This document shows positions 6,006-63,936 of a stretch of 64,000 nucleotides of DNA, piece after piece. The stretch spans positions 1,888 to 65,887 of the forward strand of contig DASXUF010000129.1 of assembly GCA_036504975.1 (NCBI GenBank), given 5' to 3'. The DNA comes from Candidatus Binatia bacterium (lineage in GTDB: Bacteria > Desulfobacterota > Binatia > UBA9968). Below the pieces are notes generated by a model. It was not told the DNA's origin. It made no database searches and saw only the letters and a list, made by a program, of their open reading frames with translations. The position numbers and the translations under genes were made by a program. Every line of letters begins with the position of its first letter. Position 1 is the first letter of the stretch.

Positions 6006-6093
6006 GACTTCCGTTCCAGACATTTTTCTTGCAGTCACACAGGGTGGGTGGTATAAAAAGCCGACCTACAATGGTGCTCTTTGCCGATCACTT

Positions 6094-6993: not shown

Positions 6994-7125
6994 TGCCATT
7001 TGAACAACCTGGGTCTTCCGGACCGTCTATTCCATGCTGACAACCGCTTCGTCGTCCAGACGGAGCAACATCTTCTCGAACGGCATCTTCGTAACTAAAG
7101 GCAACAAAATTGTCTGTGTTCAGCT

Positions 7126-9118: not shown

Positions 9119-9134
9119 AGCTGTGACCGCCCCT

Positions 9135-9251
9135 ATGACGCTGCACCAGTTAAGAGTATTCGCCAAAGTAGCCGAGCTGCAAAGCTTCACCGAGGCGGCC
9201 AAGCGTAGCATTTCGTCAAAAATAACAAAGCCGAGACGGTCCGCGCCATGA
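9135..9251 (+). pseudogene. 5' stub of a LysR gene (23 HTH codons, then unrelated sequence and a stop)
   Basis: 9135..9203 matches 7126..7194 at 66 of 69 nt. It encodes MTLHQLRVFAKVAELQSFTEAAK, then diverges and stops after 15 more codons. Confidence 0.65.
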
Positions 9252-10765: not shown

Positions 10766-12293
10766 GCGCGGCTTTCTCCTCCCAGACGGTCTCGCCTTGG
10801 ATCAGCGGGATAGCGAGCTTCTGGCTCTCGACTCTCTCGATGACCAGGCGAGCTGAGCTTTTCATCCGGCTTAAGAAAGGCTGGGGGTAGATGCCCATGA
10901 AAAAGATCAACGCTATGATCGGCGCCAACATGCAGATCTCTCGCGCGTTCATGTCTTCGAGCCTCTGGTTCTCCGGCCGCGCAAGAGGGCCGAAAACCAC
11001 GCGGCGAAACATCCACAGCATGGTGATCGCGCCGAGAACGACGCCGGTGGCGGCGATTGCCGTCCATATCGGGGCCGTTGCGAACGCGCCCAGCAGGATC
11101 AGAAACTCGCCGACGAAGCCGTTGAGCCCAGGAAGCCCGATGGAAGAAAGAGTGACCACGAGAAAAAACCCGGAGAAAATCGGGATCTGCTTCCACAAGC
11201 CGCCGAAGTCGTCGATCAGGCGCGTGTGCCGCCGGTCGTAGATCATGCCGACTATAAGAAACAAAGCGCCGGTGGAGAGACCGTGGTTGAGCATCTGGTA
11301 GACCGCACCTTCGATGCCTTGAAGGTTGAACGCGAACAGGCCCAGCATGACGAAGCCCAGATGACTCACCGACGAATAAGCGACGAGCTTTTTAAGGTCG
11401 TCCTGCATCATCGCGACCATGGCGCCGTAGACGATGCCGACGACCGCGAGCGCGACGACCCACGGCGCCGCGGAAAGCGCGGCCGCGGGAAACAACGGAA
11501 TCGCGAAGCGTAAAAAACCGTAAGTCCCCATCTTGAGGAGAACGCCGGCGAGAATGACCGAGCCGGCGGTCGGCGCCTCGACGTGCGCGTCGGGGAGCCA
11601 GGTGTGAAGCGGGAACAGCGGGACTTTGATGGCGAACGAAAGCGCGAAGGCGAGGAACAGCCACATCTGCTCGTCGTAGGGAAGATTGAGATTCGAGATG
11701 CGGAGGAGGTCGAAGGTCAGGCTCTGGGTCACCTGAAAATTCCGCGTCGCGAGAAAGATGATGCCGACCAGCATGAGCAGGCTCCCGGCCATCGTGTAAA
11801 TTACGAACTTGACCGCGGCGTAGATCCGGCGCTCGCCGCCCCAGACGCCGATCAAAAAATACATCGGCACCAGCATCACCTCCCAGAAGACGTAGAAGAG
11901 GAACAGATCGACGGCAACCAGGGCGCCGAGCATGCCGGTCTCGAGGAACAGCATGAAAAAGAGATACTCCTTAACTCTGTCGTGGATCGTCCAGGACGCC
12001 AGGATTGCGACCGGCGTGAGGAAAGCCGTGAGCAAAACGAGAAAAAGACTGAGGCCGTCGATGCCGACGGCGTACTCGATCCCATAGGCTGGAATCCAGC
12101 GAAGCCGCTCGACGAGCTGCATCGCGCCGGTATTCGGGTCGAAGCGCCAGAGAATCCACAGCGACTGGAGAAACGCGAGGAGGCTCACCCCCAGCGCGGC
12201 CTTGAACAGCGCCGAAGTTTGGCGCCGGGGAATAAAAAGCAGCGCCGCCGCCCCCAGCGTGGGAAGAAAAACCAGGAGGCTTAAATCTTTCAC
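10755..12293 (-). CDS. nuoM: NADH-quinone oxidoreductase subunit M (operon 1)
   Basis: 512-aa antiporter-like subunit in the position between nuoL and nuoN. Confidence 0.9.
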   Translation of the reverse strand: MKDLSLLVFLPTLGAAALLFIPRRQTSALFKAALGVSLLAFLQSLWILWRFDPNTGAMQLVERLRWIPAYGIEYAVGIDGLSLFLVLLTAFLTPVAILASWTIHDRVKEYLFFMLFLETGMLGALVAVDLFLFYVFWEVMLVPMYFLIGVWGGERRIYAAVKFVIYTMAGSLLMLVGIIFLATRNFQVTQSLTFDLLRISNLNLPYDEQMWLFLAFALSFAIKVPLFPLHTWLPDAHVEAPTAGSVILAGVLLKMGTYGFLRFAIPLFPAAALSAAPWVVALAVVGIVYGAMVAMMQDDLKKLVAYSSVSHLGFVMLGLFAFNLQGIEGAVYQMLNHGLSTGALFLIVGMIYDRRHTRLIDDFGGLWKQIPIFSGFFLVVTLSSIGLPGLNGFVGEFLILLGAFATAPIWTAIAATGVVLGAITMLWMFRRVVFGPLARPENQRLEDMNAREICMLAPIIALIFFMGIYPQPFLSRMKSSARLVIERVESQKLAIPLIQGETVWEEKAARGN

Positions 12294-12297
12294 CGCT

Positions 12298-14199
12298 TCA
12301 CCACCTCAAAAAATACGCGAAGATCAAAAGCGTTCCGGCCAGAAAGGCGAACAGGTAGTGTTGCACGTTGCCGCTCTGAAGCCGGCGCCACGAGAGGCTT
12401 CTCGCGCGCACGCTCGCGGCGACGCCGTTGACGATGCCGTCGATGAATCCGGGATCGAAGCGCCGCGCCAGCCAGTTGGACCACGCAGTGAAGGGCTGCA
12501 CGAAGAGCCGGTCGTAAAGTTCATCGACGTAGTATTTGTTACCGAGCCATCGATAGAGTGCGCCGGCGGCGATTCGCTCCGCGATCTTGCTGTCGCGGCC
12601 GTAGAGAAAGTACGCGACCAGGGCACCGAGCGCGCCTAATCCGACTGTGAGCGCCATCAGAAATAGTTCTTCGCTCAGCGCATGATGCTCCGCCGCTTTA
12701 GGCCCGCCGAACACCGGCTGCAGCCAATGATCCCACACGCCGCCCCACATAAACTCTGGCGTGGCCAGCCAGCCGGCGAAGATCGAGCCCAGCGCGAGGA
12801 CGATCAGCGGCGCGGTCATGACCCGCGGCGATTCATGAATATGAGATCGGGACGGCTCGGGCACGCGCGACGGGCCATGAAACACCATGAAGAACTGGCG
12901 GAACATGTAAAAAGCTGTCAGTCCCGCCGTGAGCCATGCCATCCCCCAAAGCGCGATCGACCGGCTCGCATAGACCTCCCACAGAATCCGGTCCTTGGAA
13001 AAAAACCCTGCCGTGAGCGGCGCGCCGGAAATCGCCAGGGCAGCGATCAGGTAAGTCCAGTAAGTGACCGGCAGATGGCGCCGGAGACCGCCCATCTTCC
13101 GCATATCTTGTTCTCCATCGAGCGCGTGGATGACGCTTCCCGATCCGAGAAACAGACAGGCCTTGAAAAAAGCGTGCGTGAAGAGATGGAACACGGCCGC
13201 GCTGAAGGCGCCGACGCCGACGGCGAGAAACATGTAACCCAATTGGCTGACCGTGGAATAGGCCAGCACGCGCTTGATGTCGTTTTGGGCAACGGCGATG
13301 GTCGCGGCAAAAATCGCCGTGAGGGCGCCGATGGCTGCGACGACGGCGAGCGTCTCGGGCGCCAGCGTGAAGAGAAAGTTGAGGCGCGCCGTCATGTAAA
13401 CGCCGGCGGTCACCATCGTCGCCGCGTGGATCAGCGCGCTGACGGGCGTAGGCCCTTGCATCGCGTCGGGGAGCCAGACATAGAGCGGGATCTGCGCCGA
13501 CTTGCCGGTCGCGCCGGTGAAGAAGAGCAAGGTGACGAGCGCCACGATCTCGGGCCTGAGGAGATGGGCCGCCTGGCGCAAGTCGGAGAAGTTAAGCGAC
13601 GGCACGCCGTGGCGGCTCATTTCCCAGAAGAGCAGCAGGAGGCCCAGGATAAAGCCGAAGTCGCCGATGCGGTTCACGATGAAGGCCTTGTTCCCGGCGA
13701 TCGTGTTGGTGTGGTCCCGGTACCAGAAGCCGATCAGGAGATACGAGCAGAGACCGACTCCTTCCCAGCCGACAAAGAGGACGAGCAGGTTGTCGGCCAG
13801 GACCAAGAGCGACATAAAAAAAACGAAGAGATTGAGATACGCGAAGTAGCGGATCATGCCTTCGTCGTGGGCCATGTAGCCCAACGAATAAACGTGGATG
13901 AGAAAACCGATCCCGGTGATGACGAGCAGCATGACCACGGTCAAGGGATCCGCCTGAAAAGAAAGGCTCGCTTTGAACGGCTCCGAATCGATCCAAGTAA
14001 AGACCGTATCGCGAAAGACCCCCGTCGGTGACAAAAGCAAGAAAACCTGGAGTGAAACGAGGAACGATAACGCCACGGCAGCGCAGGCGAGAAAGCCGGC
14101 GGATTTGCGGCCCAACCGCGCCCCGAAAAAGATATTGACCGCGGCGCCAAGCAGTGGAAAAAGCGGTATGTAACGAAGTAGAGTCAAAGTTGCCGTCAT
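12298..14199 (-). CDS. nuoL: NADH-quinone oxidoreductase subunit L (operon 1)
   Basis: 633 aa. It has an antiporter-like core plus the C-terminal extension expected for NuoL. Confidence 0.9.
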   Translation of the reverse strand: MTATLTLLRYIPLFPLLGAAVNIFFGARLGRKSAGFLACAAVALSFLVSLQVFLLLSPTGVFRDTVFTWIDSEPFKASLSFQADPLTVVMLLVITGIGFLIHVYSLGYMAHDEGMIRYFAYLNLFVFFMSLLVLADNLLVLFVGWEGVGLCSYLLIGFWYRDHTNTIAGNKAFIVNRIGDFGFILGLLLLFWEMSRHGVPSLNFSDLRQAAHLLRPEIVALVTLLFFTGATGKSAQIPLYVWLPDAMQGPTPVSALIHAATMVTAGVYMTARLNFLFTLAPETLAVVAAIGALTAIFAATIAVAQNDIKRVLAYSTVSQLGYMFLAVGVGAFSAAVFHLFTHAFFKACLFLGSGSVIHALDGEQDMRKMGGLRRHLPVTYWTYLIAALAISGAPLTAGFFSKDRILWEVYASRSIALWGMAWLTAGLTAFYMFRQFFMVFHGPSRVPEPSRSHIHESPRVMTAPLIVLALGSIFAGWLATPEFMWGGVWDHWLQPVFGGPKAAEHHALSEELFLMALTVGLGALGALVAYFLYGRDSKIAERIAAGALYRWLGNKYYVDELYDRLFVQPFTAWSNWLARRFDPGFIDGIVNGVAASVRARSLSWRRLQSGNVQHYLFAFLAGTLLIFAYFLRW

Positions 14200-14230
14200 T
14201 CCGGATCAATCCAAAATCTAAAATCCAAAA

Positions 14231-14254
14231 CCTGTCCTGAGCCCAGTCGAAGGA
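14231..14254. repeat. REP-a unit (CCTGTCCTGAGCCCAGTCGAAGGA) between nuoK1 and nuoL1
   Basis: It shares the CTGAGC..AG.CGAAGGA core with 48559..48581, 33518..33541 and the GIY-YIG flanking repeats. Confidence 0.6.
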
Positions 14255-14266
14255 TCCAAAATCGAT

Positions 14267-14569
14267 TTACCACCTGAGGAACTGCATGTCCTGGGGATCC
14301 AAGGTCTGGCGGTGGCGAAAGACCGAGATGATGATCGCGAGCCCCACCACCGCTTCCGCCGCCGCTACGGTCATCACGAAAAATACGATCACCTGTCCGT
14401 CCATCGAGCCGAGAAAGCGGGCGAAAGCGATGAACGTCAGATTGACGGCGTTCAGCATCAGCTCGATCGACATCAGTATGACGATGATGTTGCGCCGGAT
14501 GACGACGCCGGCGACGCCGATGACGAAGAGCACGGCGCTGAGCGCGAGATAGTAAGGCAACGGGACCAA
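14267..14569 (-). CDS. nuoK: NADH-quinone oxidoreductase subunit K (operon 1)
   Basis: The track ORF 14267..14800 is trimmed to the in-frame TTG at 14569, giving (M)[18 protein letters not shown]..., 100 aa. This is the usual NuoK length and N-terminus. The start lies 2 nt after the nuoJ stop. Confidence 0.85.
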
Positions 14570-14571: not shown

Positions 14572-15054
14572 TCAGCTCGCTTTCTTCCCCAGCGTCACCG
14601 CGCCGATGATCGCGACCAGGAGGAGAACCGAGGCGATCTCGAAAGGCAGAGCGTAATCGGTGAAGAGGCTCCGGGCCAGCGCCTCCGGCGCGCCGAAGTT
14701 TCCGGCGACGGGCGACGGCTGGAAATCCGCCGGCCGGTAAAAAAACAGCGCGACCAGCTCCCAGAGGAGCGCCAGCGACGCGAGCGAGCCGGCGGTCCAC
14801 CAGACGGCCGGCCGCGGCTCCAGCGCCGCCGGATTCAGCAGCATGATGACGAAAAGAAAGAGAATCATGATCGCGCCGGCGTAGACCAGCACCTGCAGCG
14901 CGCCGACCATCGGGGCATCCAGCGTGATAAACAAAACGGAGACCAGGAAGAGCGTCGCCGCGAGCGCCATCGCGTTATGAACCACGTTGCGGCGAAAAAT
15001 GACGAGCAGAGAGAACACGACCGAAAGAACGGCGAGGATGAAAAAGAGGATCAT
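14572..15054 (-). CDS. nuoJ: NADH-quinone oxidoreductase subunit J (operon 1)
   Basis: 160-aa membrane protein consistent with NuoJ by synteny and sequence. Confidence 0.9.
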
Positions 15055-15061: not shown

Positions 15062-16171
15062 TCATGGATGAGAGGAAAATCCTTGCCGGAGCACGATCCA
15101 AACGGCGGTGACGACGAGGTTGACGGCCGCGACCGGCAGCATCATTTTCCAGCCGAGGCGCATCACCTGATCGTAGCGAAAGCGCGGCAGGCTCCAGCGC
15201 AGGAGAATCTGCAGCCAGCAGAAAAAGATCACTTTGACCGTGAAGGCGCCGACCTGGAGCAAGGTCACGCCGAGGGGAGCCAGGAGGAGCGTGCCGCCCC
15301 AGGGAAAATGAAAGCCGTCGCGCATGAGCCAGGGCACCTGCCAGCCGCCGAAAAAGAGCGTCGTGACGAGGCCCGCGGCCGTGACGATCTCGGCGAACTC
15401 GCCGGCGAAGAACATCAAAAACTTTCCGCCGGAATATTCCACGTGATAGCCGGCGACGAGCTCCGATTCGCCCTCGGGGATATCGAACGGTATGCGCTTG
15501 GTCTCGGCGACCGCCGCGGTAAAGAAGAGCAGGAACCCTACCGGCTGGAGAAAAATTCCCCAGGCCGGGAGCCACCCCCCCCAGAGGAGCCCGCCCTGCG
15601 CCCGCACCATCTCTTGCGGCTCGAGCGTGGCGTAGAACATCAGCACCCCCATGATCGAGAGGCCCATGGCGATCTCGTAGGAGATCATCTGCGCCGCGCC
15701 TCGCACGCCGCCGAGCAGCGAGAATTTGTTGTTCGAGGCCCACGCGCCGATGACGATGCCGTAAACGCCGAGCGAAGCCATGGCGAAGAGATAGAGGATG
15801 CCGATGTTCAAGTTCGCGACCTGCAGGTTGATCTCGCGGCCGCCGAGGATCAAGACGTCGCCGAACGGAATGACGGCGAACGTGACCAGCGCCGGAAAAA
15901 GCGCCAGACAGGGCGCCAGCGTGTGCAGCAGCTTGTCGCCGCGCGCCGGAATGAAATCTTCTTTGAAGAGGAATTTGATCGGATCGGCGATCAGCGTGTT
16001 GACCAGCCCCAGGCCGGCGAAGCCGAAGATCGAAGCGCGGTTGGCGCCGATGCGGTCCTGGATGAGGGCGCTGCCCTTGCGCTCGATCCAGCCTAGAATG
16101 CCGGCCAGATTGAGCACCATGAAGAGAACGAGAAAGGCCTTGGCCGCGATGATCCCGACATCGATGATCAT
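15062..16171 (-). CDS. nuoH: NADH-quinone oxidoreductase subunit H (operon 1)
   Basis: The 860-aa track ORF is trimmed to the ATG at 16171, giving MIIDVGIIAAKAF..., 369 aa. The ATGA overlaps the nuoG stop. The upstream extension is an out-of-frame shadow of nuoG. Confidence 0.9.
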   Translation of the reverse strand: MIIDVGIIAAKAFLVLFMVLNLAGILGWIERKGSALIQDRIGANRASIFGFAGLGLVNTLIADPIKFLFKEDFIPARGDKLLHTLAPCLALFPALVTFAVIPFGDVLILGGREINLQVANLNIGILYLFAMASLGVYGIVIGAWASNNKFSLLGGVRGAAQMISYEIAMGLSIMGVLMFYATLEPQEMVRAQGGLLWGGWLPAWGIFLQPVGFLLFFTAAVAETKRIPFDIPEGESELVAGYHVEYSGGKFLMFFAGEFAEIVTAAGLVTTLFFGGWQVPWLMRDGFHFPWGGTLLLAPLGVTLLQVGAFTVKVIFFCWLQILLRWSLPRFRYDQVMRLGWKMMLPVAAVNLVVTAVWIVLRQGFSSHP

Positions 16172-22287: not shown

Positions 22288-22362
22288 GACCGCTCTCAGC
22301 ATTTTTGTTGGGCGTAAACTGACGTATCGCATCGGCCCGGAGAGAGACTCCCAGGTGGACGG
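22288..22362 (-). repeat. H1 element, partial copy (5' half only) downstream of htrA
   Basis: 22321..22350 (GACGTATCGCATCGGCCCGGAGAGAGACTC) is identical to 27290..27319. Weaker similarity continues on both sides. Confidence 0.6.
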
Positions 22363-22393
22363 ATGTCAGCGCGAACTCATATGGCCGGCCCGC

Positions 22394-27182: not shown

Positions 27183-27335
27183 TGCAACCGCCCGCCCGGG
27201 GGTTTCTCGAAGGGCCGATGCGTGGGGACGAGGAGCCTCAGGCGTACTTCGGAGTTACTATGAAGACCGCTCGTGCCGGCGTAACACGGACGTATCGCAT
27301 CGGCCCGGAGAGAGACTCACGGACGGGCGGTTGCA
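27183..27335 (-). repeat. H1 nested-hairpin element (full copy) in the groEL 3' UTR
   Basis: A perfect 12-bp outer stem pairs 27183..27194 with 27324..27335. A perfect 11-bp inner stem pairs 27212..27222 with 27296..27306. See findings. Confidence 0.7.
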
Positions 27336-27345: not shown

Positions 27346-29266
<1,921 letters not shown>

Positions 29267-29324
29267 ACGAAACCTCCTCTATAAAACGTGAATTTATAAT
29301 GGACGGAGCCGTGGATTGGATGCA

Positions 29325-29352
29325 AATATAAGCTCGCATCCGCAAACGTCAA
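29325..29352 (-). promoter_or_regulatory. Candidate groESL promoter (TTGACG-N16-TATATT)
   Basis: On the minus strand the -35 is at 29352..29347 and the -10 is at 29330..29325. No CIRCE (TTAGCACTC-N9-GAGTGCTAA) was seen in the leader. Confidence 0.45.
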
Positions 29353-29379
29353 GGGTCCGGCACAAATTTTTTCGTCTCT

Positions 29380-29757
29380 TTACTTGCCAGACGGGTTATA
29401 GGGCGGGCTGGCCAGGCTTCTGACGTATGCGATAACATCGCGGATTTGCTTTTCCCTCAGTTGGTTGCCCCAAGCCGGCATAAACGGCGATTTTCCGACC
29501 CCCTGGCCGCCCTTTGAGATGATCTCGAACAGGAACTTGTCCGGGAGCTGGTTCATCGCAGCCCCGTCGGTATGGTTGGTCGGCTTGACCGGCAGGGATA
29601 CCGCCGCCTGACCGTTCCCTTTCCCGCTCTCTCCATGACAACCGGAACAATAAGTGATGTAGTGTTTCTTGCCCTCGGCCTTGTCCTGGGCCGCCGCGGT
29701 TTGCGCCAGGATCAAAAGCAACGTCACCGTTCCGCCCAAAGCCAATCGATGTTCCAT
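29380..29757 (-). CDS. Mono-haem class I c-type cytochrome, secreted
   Basis: 125 aa with a signal peptide, a single CSGCH haem-binding motif, and a distal Met region (SPFMPAWG). Confidence 0.85.
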   Translation of the reverse strand: MEHRLALGGTVTLLLILAQTAAAQDKAEGKKHYITYCSGCHGESGKGNGQAAVSLPVKPTNHTDGAAMNQLPDKFLFEIISKGGQGVGKSPFMPAWGNQLREKQIRDVIAYVRSLASPPYNPSGK

Positions 29758-29877
29758 TACCCTCCTCCGTATTTTTCCGCCTCTAAAACAATTTCACTTA
29801 TCAGATCGCGGAGAAAAGCGGTAGCGCCCGGTACACTTTATGGCCAAACGGTGGTAAGGGTCCAAAAAGGAGGGGTT

Positions 29878-30513
29878 ATGGCGAGCGCAACCAGGATCAA
29901 GATCTGGGGCAGACGAGACTCATCGAACGTGCAAAAGGTCGTCTGGTGCTGCGATGAGCTGGGCGTGGACTTCGACCGCGTGGACCTCGGCGGCAAATTC
30001 GGCGGCAACAAAGAGAAGCCCTATCTCGATATGAACCCAAACGGCCTCGTGCCGACGATCGATGACGGCGGCTTTATCCTGTGGGAATCGAACACGATCG
30101 TCCGCTATCTCACCGAAAAATACGGCGGCGGAAAACTGCTTCCGCCGAGTCCGGAAGGACGCGCGAACGCCAGCCGCTGGATGGATTGGCAGTTGAGCAC
30201 GATGAATCCGGCCATCGTGCCGCTTTTTTGGGGAATTGTCCGCACGCCGGAAGAAAAGCGTGACCGCGCGGCGCTCGCAACCGCGCTGGAGAGAACCACG
30301 AATGCGTGGAAGATCGTCGACGATCAGTTGGCGAAGACCCCTTACCTCGCCGGCAATGATTTTACCATCGGCGATATCCCGCTGGCCGTTTGGGCCTACC
30401 GCTGGTTCAAACTGCCGATCGAGCGCCCCGCGCTGAAGCACCTAAGCGCTTGGTACGATCGCCTCTGCCAGCGTCCGCCGTATCAGACCCACATCATGAT
30501 TCCGATGACGTAG
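29878..30513 (+). CDS. Glutathione S-transferase family protein
   Basis: The track ORF is trimmed to the ATG at 29878, which follows an AAGGAGGGG Shine-Dalgarno. 211 aa with the N-terminal block SSNVQKVVWCCDELG...NPNGLVPTIDD...LWESNTIVRYL. Confidence 0.85.
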   Translation: MASATRIKIWGRRDSSNVQKVVWCCDELGVDFDRVDLGGKFGGNKEKPYLDMNPNGLVPTIDDGGFILWESNTIVRYLTEKYGGGKLLPPSPEGRANASRWMDWQLSTMNPAIVPLFWGIVRTPEEKRDRAALATALERTTNAWKIVDDQLAKTPYLAGNDFTIGDIPLAVWAYRWFKLPIERPALKHLSAWYDRLCQRPPYQTHIMIPMT

Positions 30514-30528
30514 CCGCCAACCCCGCCA

Positions 30529-31323
30529 CTATTTATCACTTAGAATTATCGGCAAGCCGCTCTTGTCACCCAGGACAATGATCTTTGCGTTCGGGCTCTT
30601 GGAAAGCTCGCTCGCCACTTCGATCGCCTTCCATTTGAGCAACTGCTCGCTGATACCCCTCGATACGATGGCCTGGAAATCGGCGATTCCTTGGCCTTCG
30701 ATGCGCTTTCTTTCGGCTTCCTGCTTTTCCTTGTCAAGAACGAATCTCATCCTCTGAGACTGCTGTTCCGCCTGTAACTTTTCCTGGATCGACTGGGTCA
30801 AAAGCTGCGGGAGCTGCACCGCCCTGAGAAGCACCTGCTCCGCTTCGATGCCCCGGGGAGTGATAAGCAGCTCGATGTGTTTGAACATGTTCTTGGCCAC
30901 CATCTCGCGCGAGGCCGAATAGAGGAACTTCGCCTCGTACTCGGCCGTAACGTCGCGGATGACGGAGCGGAGCTGCGGATCGATAACGACGAATTCATAA
31001 TTTCTCCCAACCGTCTTATAGACTCTGGGCGCCTCTTCCGGTTTGAGGCGAAAGAGCAAAGACACGTCCAGGTTGACGATGAGTCCCTCCGACGTTGGAA
31101 CCGCGGCCGACTCCTTCATTTCCCGGGTCTGGACGCTGAATTTTATTACCCGAGTGAAGGGAAAAACGAAGTTGATCCCCGGGTGCAGCGGCTGGTCGGA
31201 GACTTTACCGAAGAAATCCTTGACTCCGACATGCCCCGCGGGCACAACGGTTGTCGTCAGATACAATAAGAGAAGGATTCCAGCCGCGATCGCAGCCGCC
31301 TTCACCGATACAATACGCTCCAT
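30529..31323 (-). CDS. SPFH / band-7 (prohibitin/HflC-like) membrane protein
   Basis: Trimmed to MERIVSV (ATG at 31323), which is preceded by an AAGGAGG Shine-Dalgarno. It has an N-terminal TM segment, then an SPFH core and a coiled coil (LQAEQQSQRMRFVLDKEKQEAERKRIEGQG). Confidence 0.8.
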   Translation of the reverse strand: MERIVSVKAAAIAAGILLLLYLTTTVVPAGHVGVKDFFGKVSDQPLHPGINFVFPFTRVIKFSVQTREMKESAAVPTSEGLIVNLDVSLLFRLKPEEAPRVYKTVGRNYEFVVIDPQLRSVIRDVTAEYEAKFLYSASREMVAKNMFKHIELLITPRGIEAEQVLLRAVQLPQLLTQSIQEKLQAEQQSQRMRFVLDKEKQEAERKRIEGQGIADFQAIVSRGISEQLLKWKAIEVASELSKSPNAKIIVLGDKSGLPIILSDK

Positions 31324-31678
31324 GCCTGCGCCCTCCTTGCCGTCTTCCGGGCGACGGAAAATGCCGCGATGCTGCCACATAAATTGTAGCGCGTTCTTAT
31401 CGCAGCGGGAGGAAAATGTCTATGTTTTTTTTAACTTTCGGATAGACGGCCGATTGCGGAATTGTTTGAGCGAAATCGGGGATTAATCAGGCGGCAAAGA
31501 ATTTAGGGGCCAGCTCAACTCTGCCGAAGGCGCGAACGTTTGGTGGATTTCCACCGGAAAATTTGCCCACACACGTGTGCATTTCAACCAGAAGAGAACT
31601 GAAGTGAGATCAGCGGGGTTTGGCGGTCTGGCATTGATCGATTGCCCATGATAATTTGTTGCCACAACGAGTAACCTC

Positions 31679-31843
31679 ATGAAACACAAGTTGACGATGG
31701 TCTACTGGAGAGGGGACAAGTTCTGGCTCGGCAAGTTGATGGAGCATCCTGAAATCATGACGCAAGGAGAAACCGTGGAGGAACTTGAAGAGAACATCAA
31801 AAATGCCTACCGCTCCATCGTTATGGATGAACTAGAAGGGTAG
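31679..31843 (+). CDS. HicB-like (UPF0150) antitoxin-domain protein, 54 aa, no cognate toxin adjacent
   Basis: Below the ORF-track size cutoff, so translated by hand: MKHKLTMVYWRGDKFWLGKLMEHPEIMTQGETVEELEENIKNAYRSIVMDELEG. The pattern matches HicB N-terminal-domain proteins. Confidence 0.55.
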   Translation: MKHKLTMVYWRGDKFWLGKLMEHPEIMTQGETVEELEENIKNAYRSIVMDELEG

Positions 31844-32116
<273 letters not shown>

Positions 32117-32130
<14 letters not shown>

Positions 32131-32368
32131 AGGGAAAGCCCGGCCGCTTGGGGCTGACGAAGACACAATGCGGCCCGAGTACGATTTTTCTAAGGCGGTC
32201 CGCGGCGTCACCGCGGCACGGTACGCGGAAGGCACCAACGTTGTTCTTCTCGACCCGGATGTCGCCCAAATCTTTCCTAACGCTCGTGCGGTGAACGAGG
32301 CGTTGCGCACGATCGCTCGCCTGACGCGTACGGCATCGAGACAGCGGCCCCGCAAGCGTACGGCATAA
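32117..32368 (+). CDS. Putative antitoxin partner of BrnT (EYDFSKAVRG... family)
   Basis: It overlaps the end of the BrnT reading frame. MKKSKGKARPLGADEDTMRPEYDFSKAVRGVTAARYAEGTNVVLLDPDVAQIFPN resembles small proteins I recall seeing next to DUF497 toxins. The start is ambiguous, because 32102 is also in frame. Confidence 0.5.
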
Positions 32369-32453
32369 CCATTGGGTTGAGAAGGACGCGGCGGATCGCG
32401 CCTCTACCCAAAGCCTTGGAGAGAACAAAACCTGCCGACAGACTGCCTTCTGC

Positions 32454-32648
32454 CTACTTGCCTTCAACAAGCCGTAAGGCGGCCACTTCAATTTTCTCTA
32501 CGCTCGGCACCATGGCTTCGACCAGCGGGCCGCTGTGGGGTGGAGGAATAAAAGCACCGCCGACGCGGATCACCGGCGCTTTTAAGTCGGAAAAAAGATT
32601 TTCCTGGATCGTCCCCGCGAGTTCGGCCGTGAGACCGCTGGTTGACAA
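32454..32648 (-). pseudogene. Displaced 3' end of a 2-oxoacid dehydrogenase E1-beta gene (repeat copy A; the repeat spans 32419..32640)
   Basis: It encodes ...GLTAELAGTIQENLFSDLKAPVIRVGGAFIPPPHSGPLVEAMVPSVEKIEVAALRLVEGK, which parallels the last ~60 aa of the intact gene. The 35 nt after the stop match 36146..36180 at 34 of 35. Confidence 0.8.
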
Positions 32649-32671
32649 TATTTATGGAAATGAGAGATATC
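32642..32671 (+). promoter_or_regulatory. Conserved cassette-end element with a promoter-like TTGACA-N18-GATATC (cassette 1)
   Basis: It lies immediately after repeat copy A, and a paralogous sequence follows copy B. It faces the plus-strand cargo. Confidence 0.35.
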
Positions 32672-32827
32672 TGCGGCTTAGTGCTAACTTTCTCCGTGCA
32701 CACGCCTCCAGTGGGATCGGCAACTCGTCCCGCACCACATTTAGCTGCCTTAGGAGAAGCGGATCTCATCAGGAGAAGCTAGTCATCTGTAGAAAGGACT
32801 GGTACAATTGCTCAACTGACTTCATGG

Positions 32828-33037
32828 ATGATCGCCCAATCGCGGGTCATTGCCAAAGGCAAGCGTATTCGCGATGTCCGACGCCTGGTGGAGACGTATG
32901 GTGGAAAATCGTCGAAGTGGGTGAAGAAGAGTAGCCCCCGTTTCGATATGGGCGATCACCAGTACGAGTATCATTGGTATGAACACCCCGGTATTGGCCG
33001 GGTTGAACTGAAACGGAGACAGGTACAATCCCGATGA
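32828..33037 (+). CDS. Hypothetical small basic protein (69 aa), cassette 1
   Basis: ATG ORF whose stop overlaps the next ATG (ATGA). It is K/R-rich and contains ...EYHWYEHPGIGRVELK. No family recognised with confidence. Confidence 0.45.
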   Translation: MIAQSRVIAKGKRIRDVRRLVETYGGKSSKWVKKSSPRFDMGDHQYEYHWYEHPGIGRVELKRRQVQSR

Positions 33038-33390
33038 CTGTCAAGCTACGCCGAAAGTACGCGCGATATCCGGACCTGACCACCGGGCTGCCGTATGTCG
33101 TGATTGGAATTGAAGCTAATGATTTCCGCATTTTGAACGATCAAGGCCGCCCGTATCTCTATCCTTCGCGCCTCTTTGAGATTATCGACCCCGACAAACC
33201 CGAGGATTGGGTCACAGAAAGAGGCGAAGAAGGCGAGCGATACGCCTATCCGCCGCCGCTGAACGTCAGTGGATTTTTTGAGGATTTCTTCGATGCCAAA
33301 CCAAAGGCGGTAGCCACGTTTTGGCGGATCGTCAACCAGCGTCTTGCCAGCGCGACCAGACCAAGACAACGCGCGGCGTCTAACACCTAG
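33034..33390 (+). CDS. Hypothetical protein (118 aa), cassette 1
   Basis: It appears translationally coupled to the preceding ORF. It has an acidic core (DPDKPEDWVTERGEEGERYAYPPPLNVSGFFEDFFD). No family recognised. Confidence 0.55.
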   Translation: MTVKLRRKYARYPDLTTGLPYVVIGIEANDFRILNDQGRPYLYPSRLFEIIDPDKPEDWVTERGEEGERYAYPPPLNVSGFFEDFFDAKPKAVATFWRIVNQRLASATRPRQRAASNT

Positions 33391-33419
33391 CCCGGACTAT
33401 TCACCGCCGAGGCGCGGAG

Positions 33420-33560
33420 GACGCGTCCTTCGACGAAGCTCAGGATGCGCGGCTATGAAGAATTCCGTTCGTGGTGATCCCTCGACAAGCTCGGGACTAA
33501 AGGCGCGGTCGAGGGAGCCTGCCCTGAGCGAAGCCGAAGGGTCGAACCATGCGAACTCTG
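33420..33560. repeat. Cluster of REP-like units at the right end of cassette 1
   Basis: There are three related units: ...TTCGACGAAGCTCAGGATG..., ...CTCGACAAGCTCGGGACTAAAG..., and ...CCTGCCCTGAGCGAAGCCGAAGGGTCGAACCATG. Confidence 0.55.
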
Positions 33561-33608
33561 CGGTGAGTACGCCCTCCGACATTCTGTGGTGATTTGTCCT
33601 CCTACCAT

Positions 33609-33697
33609 GAATAAAACGCAGCGCCGACGCGGATGACCGGCGCTTTCAGGTCGGAAAAAAAATTTTCCTGAATCGTCGCCGCCAGTTCGGCCGTGAA
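33609..33697 (-). pseudogene. Internal fragment of the E1-beta 3' region (repeat copy B)
   Basis: It encodes ...FTAELAATIQENFFSDLKAPVIRVGAAF and then stops (YSW*). It lacks the last ~30 codons and the 3' flank. Confidence 0.75.
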
Positions 33698-33705
33698 CCC
33701 GCCGT

Positions 33706-33735
33706 TTGACAAGATTTCTCCAAATGAGGGATATT
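33706..33735 (+). promoter_or_regulatory. Conserved cassette-end element with a promoter-like TTGACA-N18-GATATT (cassette 2)
   Basis: It is a paralogue of 32642..32671 and lies about 55 nt upstream of the 33791 ATG. Confidence 0.4.
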
Positions 33736-33790
33736 GCGCGCAGTTCCGGTTTTGTAAGGCCATTAAGCTGTTCGAAGTGGAAGCACGGAC

Positions 33791-34894
33791 ATGGCGTACT
33801 ATATTGACCTGTTCTCGCCCGAAACGCACGAAGCATTCACGCGCTCTGGCCGTGATATCTCTGGGTTCCGCCTTCGTCACAAAGGAATGGCGGATCGGAT
33901 CAAGCCCGGCGACGTGTTCGTGTGCTACCTCACACGCCTGTCTCGCTGGTTTGGGCTGCTGGAAGTCATCGACGGTCCCTTCATTGACGACACTCCAATC
34001 TTCGTACCAGACAATGACCCGTTCGTCGTCCGCTTTCGTGTCCGACCATCAGTGTGGCTAGAGATCGAAAAGGCCATGCCGATTCACGACGACGCGATCT
34101 GGAATGGTCTCTCTTTCACCCGTGGCCTAGAGAAGGGCTCTATCGCATGGACTGGAAAGGTTCGCGGAAGCCTTGTGCGTCTTGACGACCGGGACGGTAA
34201 GTTCCTCGCTGAAAAACTGCGCGCCCAGACGGTCGAGGGTAGGGCGTACCCGCTCGATGAACAGGACATCAAGAAACTTACCACTCACACTGTCACCCGC
34301 CCTGATAAGGTTGTCGCCGTCTCGGTTCCAGACGATGCTGCCGGCGTCGAGGAGGCGCAGCCGGCTCAAGAAACAGAAGGCCGCGAGTCAATTCGTATTC
34401 AAGCCTTGATTGCCCAAATTGGTGCACGAATGGGTATGTCTATATGGATACCTCGGGCTGATCGTGGTGCCGTGCTTAAAGAGTGGAAGAGTAACGGGCA
34501 GAATCTTCTCGACCGACTTCCTCTCAATTACGACGACACTACCCTGCGGACGATCGAACAGATCGACGTGCTATGGCTTCGTGGTCGGTCAATCATTCGC
34601 GCCTTTGAGGTCGAGCACACAACCTCGGTGTACTCCGGCATCCTACGCATGGCTGATCTCCTCGCGCTTCAGCCGAACATGAACATCCGGCTTCATATCG
34701 TCGCTCCCGCTGCTAAGCGCGAGAAGGTGTTTCAAGAGATACGGCGCCCTGTGTTCTCCCTGCTGGAGAAAGGCCCGCTCGCGGAAAGTTGCACCTATCT
34801 TTCATACGATAGCCTACGGGAACTTGCTGCACAGAAGCACCTTCCACATCTTTCGGACACTGTGCTGGACGAGTACGCCGAGGAAGTAGAGTAA
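33791..34894 (+). CDS. Fusion protein: N-terminal PUA/EVE-like domain plus C-terminal PD-(D/E)xK-type nuclease-like domain (candidate modification-dependent restriction enzyme)
   Basis: 367 aa. The N-terminal ~150 aa follow the EVE strand pattern (YYIDLF, IKPGDVFVCYL, WFGLLEVIDGPF, VVRFRVRPSVWL, SLVRLDDRDGKFL). An acidic linker follows. The C-terminus has ESIRIQALIAQIG...IDVLWL...AFEVEHTTSVYSGILRMADL, which resembles E...D...ExE/K nuclease cores. The assignment rests on pattern recognition only. Confidence 0.6.
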   Translation: MAYYIDLFSPETHEAFTRSGRDISGFRLRHKGMADRIKPGDVFVCYLTRLSRWFGLLEVIDGPFIDDTPIFVPDNDPFVVRFRVRPSVWLEIEKAMPIHDDAIWNGLSFTRGLEKGSIAWTGKVRGSLVRLDDRDGKFLAEKLRAQTVEGRAYPLDEQDIKKLTTHTVTRPDKVVAVSVPDDAAGVEEAQPAQETEGRESIRIQALIAQIGARMGMSIWIPRADRGAVLKEWKSNGQNLLDRLPLNYDDTTLRTIEQIDVLWLRGRSIIRAFEVEHTTSVYSGILRMADLLALQPNMNIRLHIVAPAAKREKVFQEIRRPVFSLLEKGPLAESCTYLSYDSLRELAAQKHLPHLSDTVLDEYAEEVE

Positions 34895-35063
34895 AAACAA
34901 TCCAAAAACAAAAAGAAGCGGAGATGAAAGAGAAAGCCAAGGGAGCAGTCAAGGATCTCTGATCTGAAAAGTGGATTGAAGAGCTGTCTGCGATAGGCCG
35001 CCGACGACGACTCTGCCTAGCGCAGCTCACTTGATAGTTAGCTGACGAAAGGTATTCAGACAA

Positions 35064-36113
35064 TTGGATTGGGCCACCATCCTCACCACCATTCTCGCGA
35101 TCCTCAAGTTCACTGGCATTGGTTTGTCGATGGCGTTCGGCGTCTTGGCGCTCCTGACAAAATACAGAGACGATGACGGCAATATCACTCGATGGGGGCG
35201 CTTTGCGCTTATCGGGGTGTTCGCCTCCGGACTTTCATCGGCTGCAGCACAATCTGTCGAGTTGATTCTTTCAAACAAGGCGCGCCGCGACGCAGAACAC
35301 CGGACACAACTCGAACTCGAAGCCAACACTCGGCTACTCACGCAAATCAATCGCGGGCTGAATCCCCTGTCTGACGTACGGGCTAGCTTCTGGCTGCGAG
35401 TGTCGCTAGAACACCCCGAATTGCGCGGCTTCGTCAAGCGATTCGTTACGTCCGTCAATCCACTGATCGCCCGCTGGGAATCGGACGCATCTTCGCGAGG
35501 CGACGCCCTCGCATACCCGAGTTCCAAGGACATGAACGGCAAGGTCCTTACGGTTAATGTGCGCCAGGACTCCCCGCTGTTCCCCCAGGAGGGCAGTGAA
35601 CGTTTTGCCTATACGGTCTTCGAGAATACTACCATTACGATGCGCTTCTACCGCACGCCTATCGAGATACGCCAGTTTCCGCATTATGGTGCCATCGAGC
35701 CGAGCCGCAGCGTCAGGGATCCCGATATCGAGATGTATTTTGAGCAGGATGATGCGAGCCCATGGGACATCAACCTGGAATATGAGCCAGCGACCGGCAC
35801 ATTCCGAGTGCGAGGCAGCAGCATTTTTAGCGACCCCAATTACTGGCGGAGTTCCGGGGAGATCGTTTCACTTCTCGATCTGGCAGGTGCACAGGTGTTC
35901 ATCACCGCGGGACACACACTGGTCTCTTTTGAGGAACGAGAGAAGCGTGTTCATCCAGAAGTCGACTCAGTTGTCCTGGACGTCGGATCTCGCAAGGGCT
36001 TGAGGTTCCGTGGGGCGAGACTCATCGCGCATAAAGACCCGGTCGATGGGCAGACGATTTACGAGTACCGTTTCCCTAAGAGCTTCGAGGCGGCGGTAGC
36101 TGAGTTGCAGTAG
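35064..36113 (+). CDS. Membrane protein of unknown function (two N-terminal TM segments plus a ~250-aa soluble domain), cassette 2
   Basis: 349 aa with a TTG start. The hydrophobic stretches are TILTTILAILKFTGIGLSMAFGVLALL and WGRFALIGVFASGLSSAAAQ. A short predicted helix follows, then a beta-rich-looking domain with no recognisable motif. Confidence 0.6.
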   Translation: MDWATILTTILAILKFTGIGLSMAFGVLALLTKYRDDDGNITRWGRFALIGVFASGLSSAAAQSVELILSNKARRDAEHRTQLELEANTRLLTQINRGLNPLSDVRASFWLRVSLEHPELRGFVKRFVTSVNPLIARWESDASSRGDALAYPSSKDMNGKVLTVNVRQDSPLFPQEGSERFAYTVFENTTITMRFYRTPIEIRQFPHYGAIEPSRSVRDPDIEMYFEQDDASPWDINLEYEPATGTFRVRGSSIFSDPNYWRSSGEIVSLLDLAGAQVFITAGHTLVSFEEREKRVHPEVDSVVLDVGSRKGLRFRGARLIAHKDPVDGQTIYEYRFPKSFEAAVAELQ

Positions 36114-36115
36114 TC

Positions 36116-36136
36116 GAGGGACGAACACAGTCCCTC
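36116..36136 (+). terminator. Hairpin after the cassette 2 cargo (GAGGGAC-N7-GTCCCTC), no clear U-tract
   Basis: A 7-bp stem lies 3 nt after the stop at 36113. Confidence 0.3.
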
Positions 36137-36180
36137 TGTTCGAAAGAGAGAACAAAACCTGACGACAGACTGCCTTCTGC

Positions 36181-37203
36181 CTACTTCCCTCCAACCAACC
36201 GCAACGCCGACGTTTCAATTCGCTCCACGTTCGGCACCATCGCTTCGACGAGCGGACCGCTGTGAGGCGGTGGAATAAACGCAGCGCCGACGCGGATGAC
36301 CGGCGCTTTTAAATCGGAAAAAAGATTTTCTTGAATCGTCGCCGCAAGCTCGGCCGTGAGTCCACCGACGATCGGTCCTTCATCGACGATTATGGCTCGC
36401 TTGGTCTTGGCGACGGATTTTAAAATGGTTTCCTTGTCCAGCGGCGCCAGCGAGCGCAGGTCGATGATCTCGGCGGCGATGCCTTTTTCTTTGAGCCTCT
36501 CGGCCGCCTCATCCACTTTGAGGACCATGCCGCCGCAGGTAACGATCGTCAAATCTTTTCCCTCGCGGCGCACGCTGGCCAGGCCTATCGGCACGGTGTA
36601 GTCACCGTCGGGCACGGGCCCTTTAACGCCGTATAGATGGTGGCTTTCGAAGCAGAGGACGGGGTTGGGATCACGGATCGCCGATAATAAGAGCCCTTTA
36701 GCGTCCGCGGGAGTCGCCGGGACGATGATTTTGAGCCCCGGAAATGGAATAAACGCGCCGTGATTGCAGCTCGAATGGCTCGGACCGCCACCCGGCCGCG
36801 TGCCGAATTTGTTCCGGATCACGATCGGCACGGAAATCCGTCCGCCGGTCATGTAGTGGTAGCGCGCGGCGTGGGTGACGAGCTGGTCCATGCAGAGCGG
36901 CAAAAGATCGCAGAACTGGATCTCGACGACCGGCCGCATGCCGTTGATTGCGGCGCCGACGGCGAGGCCGACGAGCGCGGCCTCGGAAATCGGCGTGTCG
37001 CGCACGCGCTCGGCGCCGAACTCCTGGAGCAACCCGCGCGTCACGCCGTACGCGCCGCCAAAGAGCGCCACGTCTTCGCCCATCACGAAGACGCGCTGGT
37101 CGCGCGCCATCTCGTATCTCAGCGTCTCGCGCAGCGCCTCCTGAATACGCATCTCTTTAACGGTCCCGCTAAGCGCAACTGCTTCCATAGTCTTGTCGAA
37201 CAT
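36181..37203 (-). CDS. 2-oxoacid (pyruvate/acetoin/branched-chain type) dehydrogenase E1 component, beta subunit
   Basis: Trimmed to MFDKTMEAV... (ATG at 37203), which is preceded by a GAGG Shine-Dalgarno. It has the transketolase-like pyrimidine-binding blocks (VFVMGEDV...ERVRDTPISEAALVG) and a C-terminal domain. Its last ~62 codons belong to repeat copy C. Confidence 0.9.
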   Translation of the reverse strand: MFDKTMEAVALSGTVKEMRIQEALRETLRYEMARDQRVFVMGEDVALFGGAYGVTRGLLQEFGAERVRDTPISEAALVGLAVGAAINGMRPVVEIQFCDLLPLCMDQLVTHAARYHYMTGGRISVPIVIRNKFGTRPGGGPSHSSCNHGAFIPFPGLKIIVPATPADAKGLLLSAIRDPNPVLCFESHHLYGVKGPVPDGDYTVPIGLASVRREGKDLTIVTCGGMVLKVDEAAERLKEKGIAAEIIDLRSLAPLDKETILKSVAKTKRAIIVDEGPIVGGLTAELAATIQENLFSDLKAPVIRVGAAFIPPPHSGPLVEAMVPNVERIETSALRLVGGK

Positions 37204-37350
37204 CAACCTCAATCGAGAAAAAACCAGCGTGCAGACCGAGGGGCGAGCCCCGGAGGCCGAGGGCACAGGAGACTAGAGTCGCCACGACTCGTTAGGTGCT
37301 TGGCCATATGCTTGCAGTTCTTCTCGACGTTCGATCCAAACCAATCGTTT

Positions 37351-37406
37351 GCAGGCCGCCTCAAGGCACGATCTATTGCCCTCGGCCGGAGGGGCTTGCC
37401 CTGAGG
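37351..37406 (+). repeat. R1 repeat family, partial copy D (3' third only), overlapping the end of the E1-alpha gene
   Basis: GGCCGCCTCAAGGCACGATCTATTGCCCTCGGCCGGAGGGGCTTGCCCTGAGG aligns with the 3' parts of copies A and B. Confidence 0.5.
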
Positions 37407-38386
37407 TTTGCGGAATCCAATTCCGGTTCAGCGAACACGCTCTCGATCTCAACTTCTTTCGGCGGCAGCGGCGACGCTTGGGCTTTGGCGGAGACTTCCT
37501 CCAACTCGGCATAGACCGACCCGCTGATCTTCTCGAATTCGGCTTCGCTTAAGTTTCCTTCCGCGATCAACTTTTCTTTGAACCGGCGGATCGGGCAGCG
37601 CTCTTTCCACCGGTCGATCTCCTCCCGCGCGCGGTAGCCGGTCCCCGGATCGCCGCCGAAATGGCCGTCCCATCTATAAGTGAGACACTCGAGCAGCGTC
37701 GCCCCTTCGCCCCCGCGCGCCTTATCCGCCGCCTTCAGCGTCTCATGGTAGACCAGCTCGACGTCGTTGCCGTCGATCACCTTGCCTTCGAAACCGTAAC
37801 CCGCCGCACGTTCGGCGAGATGCTTGACCGCGACGCTTTTCTCCAGGCTTACGGTCATGGCGTACAGATTGTTTTCGATTACATAGATGACGGGAAGCTT
37901 CCACAGGCCGGCGAAGTTCATCGCCTCGTGCACCACGCCTTGATTCATGGCGCCATCGCCCATGAAGCTCACGGCGACTTCCCGGCTGCCCCTGATCTTC
38001 GCCGCCAGAGCGGCGCCGGTCGCGAACGGCACCGTCGCGCCGACAGTTCCCGTATTGCCCAAAAAACCAAACGAAAGGTCGCCCATGTGCATCTTGCCAC
38101 CGCGGCCTTTGGAGTAGCCGTCGAGGCGCCCTATGCATTCGCAGAGGAGCCGGTAAAGATCCGCGCCCTTGGCCACGAGATGCCCGGTTCCCCGGTGGTA
38201 GCTCGCGATAAGGTCTTTGGGCACCAGGGCGGAGCAGACGCCGACGGCGATCGCCTCCTGGCCACGGTAGGAGTGCGGGCTGCCGAACATGACTTTATTC
38301 TGGTAAAGCTCGTTCAGCTTTTCTTCGAAGGCGCGCACCTTGAGCATCGCGCCGAGCATCTCTTTTCGCTTGGATAGGTCGAGCAT
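37373..38386 (-). CDS. 2-oxoacid dehydrogenase E1 component, alpha subunit (TPP-binding)
   Basis: Trimmed to MLDLSKRKEM... (ATG at 38386), which is preceded by a GGAG Shine-Dalgarno. It has the TPP motif region GDGAMNQGVVHEAMNFA. Confidence 0.9.
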   Translation of the reverse strand: MLDLSKRKEMLGAMLKVRAFEEKLNELYQNKVMFGSPHSYRGQEAIAVGVCSALVPKDLIASYHRGTGHLVAKGADLYRLLCECIGRLDGYSKGRGGKMHMGDLSFGFLGNTGTVGATVPFATGAALAAKIRGSREVAVSFMGDGAMNQGVVHEAMNFAGLWKLPVIYVIENNLYAMTVSLEKSVAVKHLAERAAGYGFEGKVIDGNDVELVYHETLKAADKARGGEGATLLECLTYRWDGHFGGDPGTGYRAREEIDRWKERCPIRRFKEKLIAEGNLSEAEFEKISGSVYAELEEVSAKAQASPLPPKEVEIESVFAEPELDSANLRASPSGRGQ

Positions 38387-38537
38387 AAGAAATCTCCGGC
38401 CGGCGGACACGGCCGCTACGCCGTTATGTTACTTCTTAGTTTCTCGTTGGATCGGTTGTCAAGCCGCGTCAGCGCGGCATGGAAGGTTCAAAAGCAAAAC
38501 GCCCATGACCTGAATCACGGGAGCGGCGGCGGTATCG

Positions 38538-63850: not shown

Positions 63851-63936
63851 GCCGGAGTGGCGGAACGGCAGACGCGTCGGACTCAAAATCCGATGGAGGC
63901 AACTCCGTGGGGGTTCAAGTCCCTTCTCCGGCACCA
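63851..63936 (+). tRNA. tRNA-Leu (anticodon CAA), CCA encoded
   Basis: The acceptor stem GCCGGAG pairs with CTCCGGC. The anticodon loop is CTCAAAA. It has a long variable arm, a GGTTCAAGTCC T-arm, and ends ACCA. Confidence 0.9.

Follow-up and report, generated by a model that had tools for sequence, protein, structure and literature searches.

How do defence and toxin-antitoxin genes gather at one fixed chromosomal spot when no integrase accompanies them? Many such islets lack a recognisable mobile element, and the usual explanation of how they are built invokes flanking homologous recombination, which is said to be traceless. We addressed this at a locus of a Candidatus Binatia bacterium, analysing 64,000 nucleotides of contig DASXUF010000129.1 (hereafter the window), where the gene for the dehydrogenase subunit E1-beta is followed by accessory genes and by truncated copies of its own 3' end; here, traces remain. 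The explanation that we favour, at a probability of roughly 0.5, is serial displacement: on the sequence evidence, each new unit would have entered by one homologous crossover and one illegitimate joint, and units would then have been stacked and swapped beside the intact gene by ordinary recombination, with no dedicated integrase needed.

Three E1-beta 3' ends in one array

The array is defined by the following features, with codons numbered back from the stop. Locus codes (L0xx, P0xxx) denote related Binatia loci or fragments, and the closest genomes are Candidatus Binatia metagenome-assembled genomes.

36181-37266, minus strand: E1-beta (pyruvate/acetoin dehydrogenase), full length, with Pfam domains Transket_pyr and Transketolase_C
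36146-36367, minus strand: copy C, the last ~62 E1-beta codons (36184-36367) plus 35 nt of flank, within the intact gene
33609-33704, minus strand: copy B, orphan codons about -62 to -31 (repeat finder, alignment)
32454-32640, minus strand: copy A, the orphan last ~62 codons and stop (32419-32640 including flank; repeat finder)
36146-36186, minus strand: core of copy C, directly 3' of the functional E1-beta stop, 41/41 identical to L061
32419-32459, minus strand: core of copy A (35 nt of flank, stop and last codon), 40/41 identical to 36146-36186
36283-36307, minus strand: 9-bp GC-rich hairpin followed by T-rich sequence, within the coding region of E1-beta (terminator-like scan)

E1-alpha precedes E1-beta in the list of open reading frames (ORFs). 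Alignment placed all three copies where the initial annotation had seen them, with the same peptides; copy B alone was extended slightly, its end moving from 33697 to 33704. Positions 32419-32636 (copy A) align with 36146-36363 (copy C) over 218 nt at 86% identity, and the coding part is 82.5% identical over 183 nt, in keeping with the "about four-fifths" first judged by eye. Over 90 nt, copy B is 85.6% identical to A and 87.8% to C; missing from it are the final ~30 codons, the stop and the core. Copies A and C bracket 3.7 kb and the E1-beta ORF is unbroken. From left to right the copies run A, B, C, and the cargo that separates them is unrelated, all of it on the plus strand and transcribed toward E1-beta; the cargo is also AT-richer, as had been noted, if modestly so (GC 0.546-0.551, against 0.615 in E1-beta and 0.589 in the whole window).

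Copy A had been proposed as the original 3' end of the gene, and its codons speak against this. Over the conserved 135 nt, A and C differ at 18 sites, distributed 1/2/15 over codon positions 1/2/3, with 14 synonymous and 3 replacement codons, a pattern indistinguishable from that of native gene pairs of different lineages. Since 15 of the 18 differences fall at third positions, as in those native pairs, copy A is, judging by its codons, an allele copy from another lineage that was functional until recently, and not a decayed local duplicate; the idea of an old native end that has since decayed was dropped after this comparison. Copy C looks native, being equally similar on both sides of codon -61 to L061, L063, L064 and L003; no mosaic breakpoint at that codon was seen in the window's own E1-beta against these four loci. 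As C is thus continuous with the upstream gene, import is the likelier origin for A, even though its core and flank, at the distal side, look like the native context of the L061 type. Copy B carries replacements at conserved residues (leucine to phenylalanine twice) and, on this basis, is the older one. Both the synonymous bias of the divergence and the table of pairwise identities fit an origin of the orphans in different strains.

The best-conserved part of the repeat is the 41-nt core, for which a single difference between A and C had been reported correctly. The 41-mer occurs at only two places in the window (0 expected in shuffles), and copy A's version is also 40/41 identical to the native E1-beta flank of L061. 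Between A and C, mismatches number 1/41 in the core and 32/183 in the coding part (Fisher p=0.013); between the window and L061 the core is identical (41/41) and the adjoining coding sequence differs at 28/180 positions (p=0.003). The core is therefore almost invariant in A, C and L061 despite different left neighbours, whereas it is missing from copy B and from the L008, L056 and L062 units, and the L064 flank at this position is 78% identical to the core of C (hand count). On our own inspection, the core and the last three codons form an imperfect 49-nt dyad, and in the predicted fold the core pairs with the last codons through an 8-bp closing stem. The predicted stem hints at a terminator or stabiliser, but a fold by itself would not require an invariant sequence, and the stem leaves the extreme conservation of the core unexplained. 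The core could alternatively be a protein-binding or recombination site. A search of viral contigs with a 21-nt core pattern returned zero matches, and a role as the site of a viral mobile element was dropped. The DNA-pattern scan of metagenomes returned 7 contigs, the window's own not among them, so that collection is thin for this lineage.

Beyond the E1-beta homology, A and B have a further ~30-55 nt in common, a block that we call LE (32641-32695 and 33705-33760), which carries a promoter-like TTGACA-18-GATATT directed into the cargo. The LE beside copy B (LE_B) matches a 55-nt stretch at the GST-side edge of the L064 islet with 89% identity; searched for elsewhere, LE was found only in the window (A and B) and in L064. 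The intragenic E1-beta hairpin, which resembles an intrinsic terminator, is also present at 33620-33644 (B) and at 32558-32578 (A). The distal end of B lies directly after the former and its T tract, and this breakpoint is the same in L008 and L061 and lies at most 2 nt away in L056, next to another neighbour. Two independent truncations within 2 nt of the 3' side of the hairpin suggest that it is a hotspot of breakage or template switching.

A variable site and scars at other genes

The gene order NuoN-MlaC-E1alpha-E1beta is conserved in about 45 Binatia loci; the DNA after the E1-beta stop is not. Across the sixty-odd Binatia loci compared, this space ranges from 15 nt to 7 kb or >10 kb, with different cargo each time. 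In eight loci (L002, L012-L015, L024, L036, L037) GST ends 15-100 nt past E1-beta; in others 0.5-7 kb lie between, or E1-beta borders on a LipA-LipB-E3-E2-E1 cluster or on other genes. E1-beta is thus the only constant flank, the other being GST, LipA or something else. L063 is near-empty, its E1-beta stop being followed by 25 nt and then by a 52-nt element that lies at 31541-31592 in the window. Relative to L063, the array is a 4.6-kb accessory islet (31593-36180) of units of 0.8-2.4 kb. Both cassettes of the initial annotation are present; measured in this way, the array is larger and has three units rather than two, the additional one being a BrnTA unit to the left of copy A that starts at 31593.

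31541-31592, no strand: 52-nt double-hairpin element, outer left boundary of the array (comparison with relatives)
31593-32418, plus strand: unit 0, with a promoter-like site, orf54, BrnT and orf95
31628-31655, plus strand: promoter-like site of unit 0 (promoter scan)
31679-31843, plus strand: orf54, HicB-like by eye only
31853-32130, plus strand: BrnT toxin, frameshifted (Pfam BrnT_toxin, residues 7-45 only)
32081-32368, plus strand: orf95, BrnA-like (L061 homologue with a weak BrnA match)
32641-33608, plus strand: cassette 1, with LE_A (32641-32695), orf69, orf118 and a spacer
32828-33037, plus strand: orf69, no family match
33034-33390, plus strand: orf118, overlapping orf69, no family match
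33391-33608, plus strand: GC-rich spacer with a repeat resembling repetitive extragenic palindromes (REP-like, from the look of the sequence)
33705-36145, plus strand: cassette 2, with LE_B, orf367, orf349 and a hairpin
33706-33735, plus strand: promoter-like site of LE_B (promoter scan)
33791-34894, plus strand: orf367, EVE-like N-terminus and NmeDI_C/REase_II-like C-terminus
35064-36113, plus strand: orf349, no family match, hydrophobic N-terminus by eye
~36117-36137: terminator-like hairpin at the end of cassette 2 (fold)

Close relatives carry different cargo at this same site (L061, L063, L064, L008, P0130). L061 reads DUF2442, orf118, spacer, 19 nt of B, truncated BrnT, BrnA, core, E1-beta; L064 reads E1-beta, a diverged core, three unrelated genes, LE and GST, with no duplicate; L008 has four other genes and then a B-like fragment with orf118. 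The unit adjoining E1-beta therefore differs between the window, L061 and L008, and the orf118-B module is common to them; orf118, spacer and B are found at 91-94% identity in L008, L056 and L061. With variable content that includes defence genes at one position, and with empty variants, the site behaves as a core defence hotspot, and the hotspot that was first proposed is borne out by both the empty sites and the differing cargo that a comparison with relatives was expected to reveal. An old fixed duplication, with the same triple arrangement in all relatives, is contradicted by the nearest ones, all of which differ. Empty sites in relatives (L063, and L056 and L059 for LipA) do not give the direction of change.

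Fragments of E1-beta also occur on their own. A stand-alone tail in L062 runs from codon -67 to the stop and lies 86 nt from a copy of the orf54 promoter region of unit 0; others start at about codon -56 (P0123) or comprise 70 aa (P0122). Proximal boundaries thus fall at -67 (L062), -62 (A and B, with LE), -54 (L008, L056) and about -56 (P0123), and each type is joined to an unrelated sequence.

Exchange of the gene end can be followed in mosaic relatives. L003 and L059 agree over 290 nt except for 2 mismatches, diverge by ~20% from codon -85 onward and across the intergenic region, and are identical again in LipA; by its outline this is a classic double-crossover patch. Between L008 and L003, identity falls from 91-100% to 76% near codon -61. 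Such mosaic ends indicate that the E1-beta tail was exchanged between lineages together with downstream DNA. Besides these breakpoints within the anchor gene, at least three types of non-homologous joint are seen.

The same signature recurs at three other conserved genes. In LipA, the last 20 codons are duplicated around a HicB-HicA-orf98 cassette (L003 5659-5720 / 6507-6568; L008 14554-14612 / 15466-15524; L045 503-566 / 1351-1414), with other DNA accompanying orf98 at the scar in L008. LipA is single-copy in L056 and L059, where flanks 93-98% identical reveal a presence/absence polymorphism; the displaced copy keeps the stop and flank of the empty site, and a new stop ends the functional one. 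L007 carries a second copy of the last ~57 codons of GroEL, 4.7 kb downstream (6763-6934 / 11600-11771; 172 nt, 89%, with the distal ~50 nt identical) beyond an HTH regulator, a PQQ dehydrogenase and an alpha/beta hydrolase. In L003, an MNT-type, toxin-antitoxin-like nucleotidyltransferase gene lies between two copies (14088-14319 / 14804-15034) of a 232-nt stretch from the 3' end of an LplA/LipB-like ligase gene. No recombinase was found among the cargoes of the LipA, GroEL and LplA-like scars. That one signature should mark four different conserved genes argues for a general process that would be independent of sequence.

The search for a dedicated enzyme was equally negative closer to hand. 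A domain search of the proteins of the interval found no recombinase, as had been noted from the ORFs, and neither did an examination of ten integrase-sized ORFs elsewhere in the window or of roughly 20 gaps in relatives for integrases and recombinases; an enzyme encoded elsewhere in the genome is possible. Rfam yielded no family match at 29000-38500 and the window's only tRNA is at 63851, and a known RNA or tRNA as the target was therefore rejected.

Some observations concern the cargo itself. In unit 0, the BrnT frame is lost after '...PDPDHSEG' and its C-terminal half ('RFIALGMS...') continues in another frame; the BrnA-like partner is intact. Searches of Pfam, NCBIfam, PADLOC and the PDB gave nothing usable for orf69, orf118 or orf349. 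The C-terminus of orf367 matches the PADLOC REase_II model for type II restriction endonucleases (E=6e-16) and PF27126 NmeDI_C, and residues 1-128 match PDB 1wmm (PH1033, EVE/PUA-like; E=7e-4), so that its domains point to what is probably a modification-dependent nuclease. This EVE-NmeDI family has >5,700 members in Binatia, Acidobacteriota and Pseudomonadota (80-88% protein identity), always solitary amid toxin-antitoxin genes, and its DNA homology is confined to the ORF (L052-L054 included). Because homology stops at the ORF edges, orf367 was rejected as a self-contained element with conserved ends, and in three other contexts no gene-end repeats surround its homologue. In L052, a 93-nt direct repeat (2852-2944 / 3485-3577, 98%) brackets one 167-aa ORF and adjoins PIN-domain genes and the orf367 homologue.

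Other repeats were noted along the way. The 52-nt element occurs once in the window; its two hairpins are GGTGGAtttCCACC and GCCC...GGGC, with compensating loop changes, and it stands in the same orientation downstream of E1-beta in L063 (2303-2354), L005 (~9670) and L009 (~13838), 25 nt after the stop in L063, ~110 nt after it in L005 and within the gap of L009. It may be a terminator or regulatory site. A short GC-rich repeat 3' of orf118 (33386-33425; L061 806-859 and 2420-2495; L008 14069-14153) is also found in the E1-alpha/E1-beta intergenic region of L061, a junction at which the window is not homologous to L061 or L003. A better intrinsic terminator follows the orphan GroEL copy of L007. 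Elsewhere in the window, the opening 71 nt of a gene for a LysR-type regulator (7126-8022) are repeated at 96% identity (7124-7194 / 9133-9203), the orphan lying just after a solute-binding protein gene (8027-9118) and the pair bracketing regulator and solute-binding protein; a third copy (6092-6162, 77%) is the start of the neighbouring LysR paralogue. A 48-nt repeat (22318-22365 / 27286-27333, 85%) has one copy immediately downstream of GroEL and may be a common regulatory or terminator element.

Routes of assembly

Under serial displacement, incoming DNA would carry the E1-beta 3' end of another Binatia lineage (from ~codon -62), the core, and cargo up to LE. One RecA-type homologous crossover, placed within the conserved end of the gene or the core and most likely in the longest block of identity, which is the core, would combine with one illegitimate joint, either by Campbell-like insertion of a circularised fragment or by homology-facilitated illegitimate recombination. 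The product would read intact gene, core, cargo, LE, foreign E1-beta tail, core and resident flank, as seen with A and C; the gene would stay whole and a second, truncated 3' end would be left beyond the new cargo. The layout of L064 (E1-beta, core-like flank, cargo, LE, GST) is that of the proposed donor. The direct repeats would then let ordinary homologous recombination stack, swap or delete units beside the intact gene, which would explain the joint of LE to both A and B, the differing units between B and E1-beta, and the single-copy sites. What we infer is how the events were ordered, whether the incoming DNA was circular or linear, and that the crossover lay in the core. The core had been put forward as the crossover site, and it may well be that; its use by a dedicated enzyme is not supported, since core-less fragments, variable boundaries and the scars at three other genes require no site-specific enzyme.

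Several points weigh against this scheme. Copies A and B have exactly one proximal boundary and a homologous LE of ~30-55 nt, so that serial displacement needs a single founding joint that was copied later, and not two independent events. All recognised proximal boundaries fall within a 16-codon zone (-54 to -70), a clustering that is only partly explained by missed short fragments of the hypervariable tail. Recombination alone does not predict so strongly conserved a core, which needs either functional constraint or very recent exchange. The window's own E1-beta displays no visible mosaic breakpoint, and the reciprocal-hybrid pattern of single-nucleotide polymorphisms at LipA consists of single sites, where later mutations are possible.

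The repeats might also be working parts: a gene tail, core and promoter-bearing LE could together form the portable homology arm of an integrase-less mobile cassette. We regard this as speculative and rather unlikely. If true, a cassette would loop out via its repeats and insert beside the same gene in related genomes using host RecA alone, and E1-beta, LipA and GroEL would be landing pads for variable defence and toxin-antitoxin cargo.

Among the alternatives to serial displacement, we considered site-specific integration as in E. coli icd, in which cassettes carrying a surrogate E1-beta end and the core were integrated in tandem by a tyrosine or serine recombinase that acts in trans or has been lost. 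The footprints of successive insertions that leave the gene intact, as first described, are borne out; copy A as the original end is not supported. The whole target with its displaced end on the far side, the boundary common to A and B with a conserved LE as the end of an element, the near-invariant core with differing left neighbours and its dyad with an 8-bp closing stem all point the same way, as do the new stop of the functional LipA copy and the empty-site version kept by the displaced one; the possible protein-binding or recombination role of the core is the main reason why this alternative stays alive. Nevertheless, no recombinase was found in the window or in about 20 gaps, the core is missing from fragments of the B type and from the L008, L056 and L062 units, and boundaries lie up to 13 codons apart between lineages. 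The same scar at four genes would need four specificities, L064 has LE and a core-like flank with no duplicate, and the 21-nt core pattern is unmatched in viral contigs. We therefore hold it to be doubtful, though it is the main rival.

In-situ tandem duplication by unequal crossing-over or replication slippage, followed by decay and cargo replacement, is improbable as an account of the array. Unequal crossing-over is the simplest way to copy the joint between A and LE into that between B and LE, and the replacements in B at otherwise conserved residues resemble those of a decaying copy; as a contributing step that copied this joint, it may have played a part. As sole cause it is contradicted by the 17.5% divergence of A and C, which is almost all synonymous, as between two functional alleles and not as between a pseudogene and its parent. 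The units carry unrelated cargo, and the fragments are no nearer to the resident gene than is that of a sister lineage (B-C 88.9%, A-C 86.7%, L061-C 90%).

A co-oriented, small and toxin-antitoxin-rich cargo with a conserved block between cassettes also recalls integron-like or Xer/dif arrays, in which the E1-beta pieces would be sites for IntI or XerCD. Single-strand folds between cassettes are no better than those of shuffles (z -0.4 to +0.5), which argues that no attC-like structure is present, and the attC idea was rejected on this comparison; IntI was not found in the window or relatives, no dif-like 11-6-11 site was seen by eye, and Rfam gave no match. Such an array is very improbable.

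A collapsed or chimeric assembly of E1-beta paralogues is least credible of all: the source is a metagenome and one Logan contig ends inside repeats B and C, but those ends are accounted for by a 33-nt exact match between B and C (own count; at least 31 nt needed), copies differing by 12-17% would not collapse, the distal joint of B is also present in L008 and L061, and contigs from three assemblies of different samples (JGI 3300036864, JGI 3300036861 and Logan SRR11743100) agree with the window at 100% identity over A and over the stretch from B to C, so the arrangement, for which an assembly artefact had been raised as a concern, is not one.

Returning to serial displacement, what is preserved here are the ends of a housekeeping gene from different lineages, a datable order and mapped joints, with counterparts at three other genes. 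The assembly of hotspots without an integrase thereby becomes directly testable, and the search image is a simple one: a truncated 3' end of a conserved gene a few kb downstream of the intact gene.

Relation to known systems

According to the passage on icd in PMC13626634 (Hill et al. 1989 as cited there), e14 and phage 21 in E. coli leave a C-terminal pseudogene, icdC, at the far end, and recombination between the two copies yields a chimeric gene. The Binatia islet likewise adjoins the 3' end of a gene for a metabolic enzyme, kept whole here too, with a C-terminal fragment at the islet's far end. Unlike e14, a 15-kb prophage with its own integrase and a defined att site, the Binatia units measure 0.8-2.4 kb, no recombinase was found with them, their boundaries differ from lineage to lineage and more than one copy is stacked.

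For orphan ends of Rhs and contact-dependent inhibition (CDI) genes and for effector-immunity arrays of type VI secretion systems (T6SS), the process proposed is homology-facilitated illegitimate recombination (Kirchberger et al. 2017, PMC5361080). Those arrays resemble the islet in having a conserved anchor, a new module beside the intact gene, older 3' pieces pushed outward, copies that come from different strains and not from duplication, and no integrase. There, however, the displaced piece is the anchor's own variable toxin domain with its immunity gene, whereas the Binatia anchor is a housekeeping dehydrogenase with no toxin role and the toxin-antitoxin and restriction cargo is separate and convergent.

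In the core defence hotspots (cDHS) of Pseudomonas aeruginosa, flanking homologous recombination has been proposed and no mobile element can be assigned (Johnson et al. 2023, PMC10250203). The Binatia site has the same fixed position beside a core gene, the same very variable content including defence genes, and no mobile element. The cDHS span tens of kb and are described as scar-free; the Binatia islet spans 0-10 kb with E1-beta as its sole constant flank, and orphaned gene ends record its joints. By analogy, the mechanism proposed for the islet would give the idea of flanking recombination at such hotspots a concrete form.

Composite arrays of the staphylococcal cassette chromosome (SCC) at the 3' end of rlmH (orfX) consist of tandem cassettes, some without recombinase genes, and have short, precise repeats of about 15-20 bp that the serine recombinases CcrAB or CcrC cut. 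Tandem cassettes delimited by repeated 3' ends of the target are common to both systems; the Binatia islet shows no such recombinase and no precise repeat. Taken together, serial displacement and icd-like duplication of a gene end are known kinds of arrangement, and what is new is a variant of them in an unstudied phylum.

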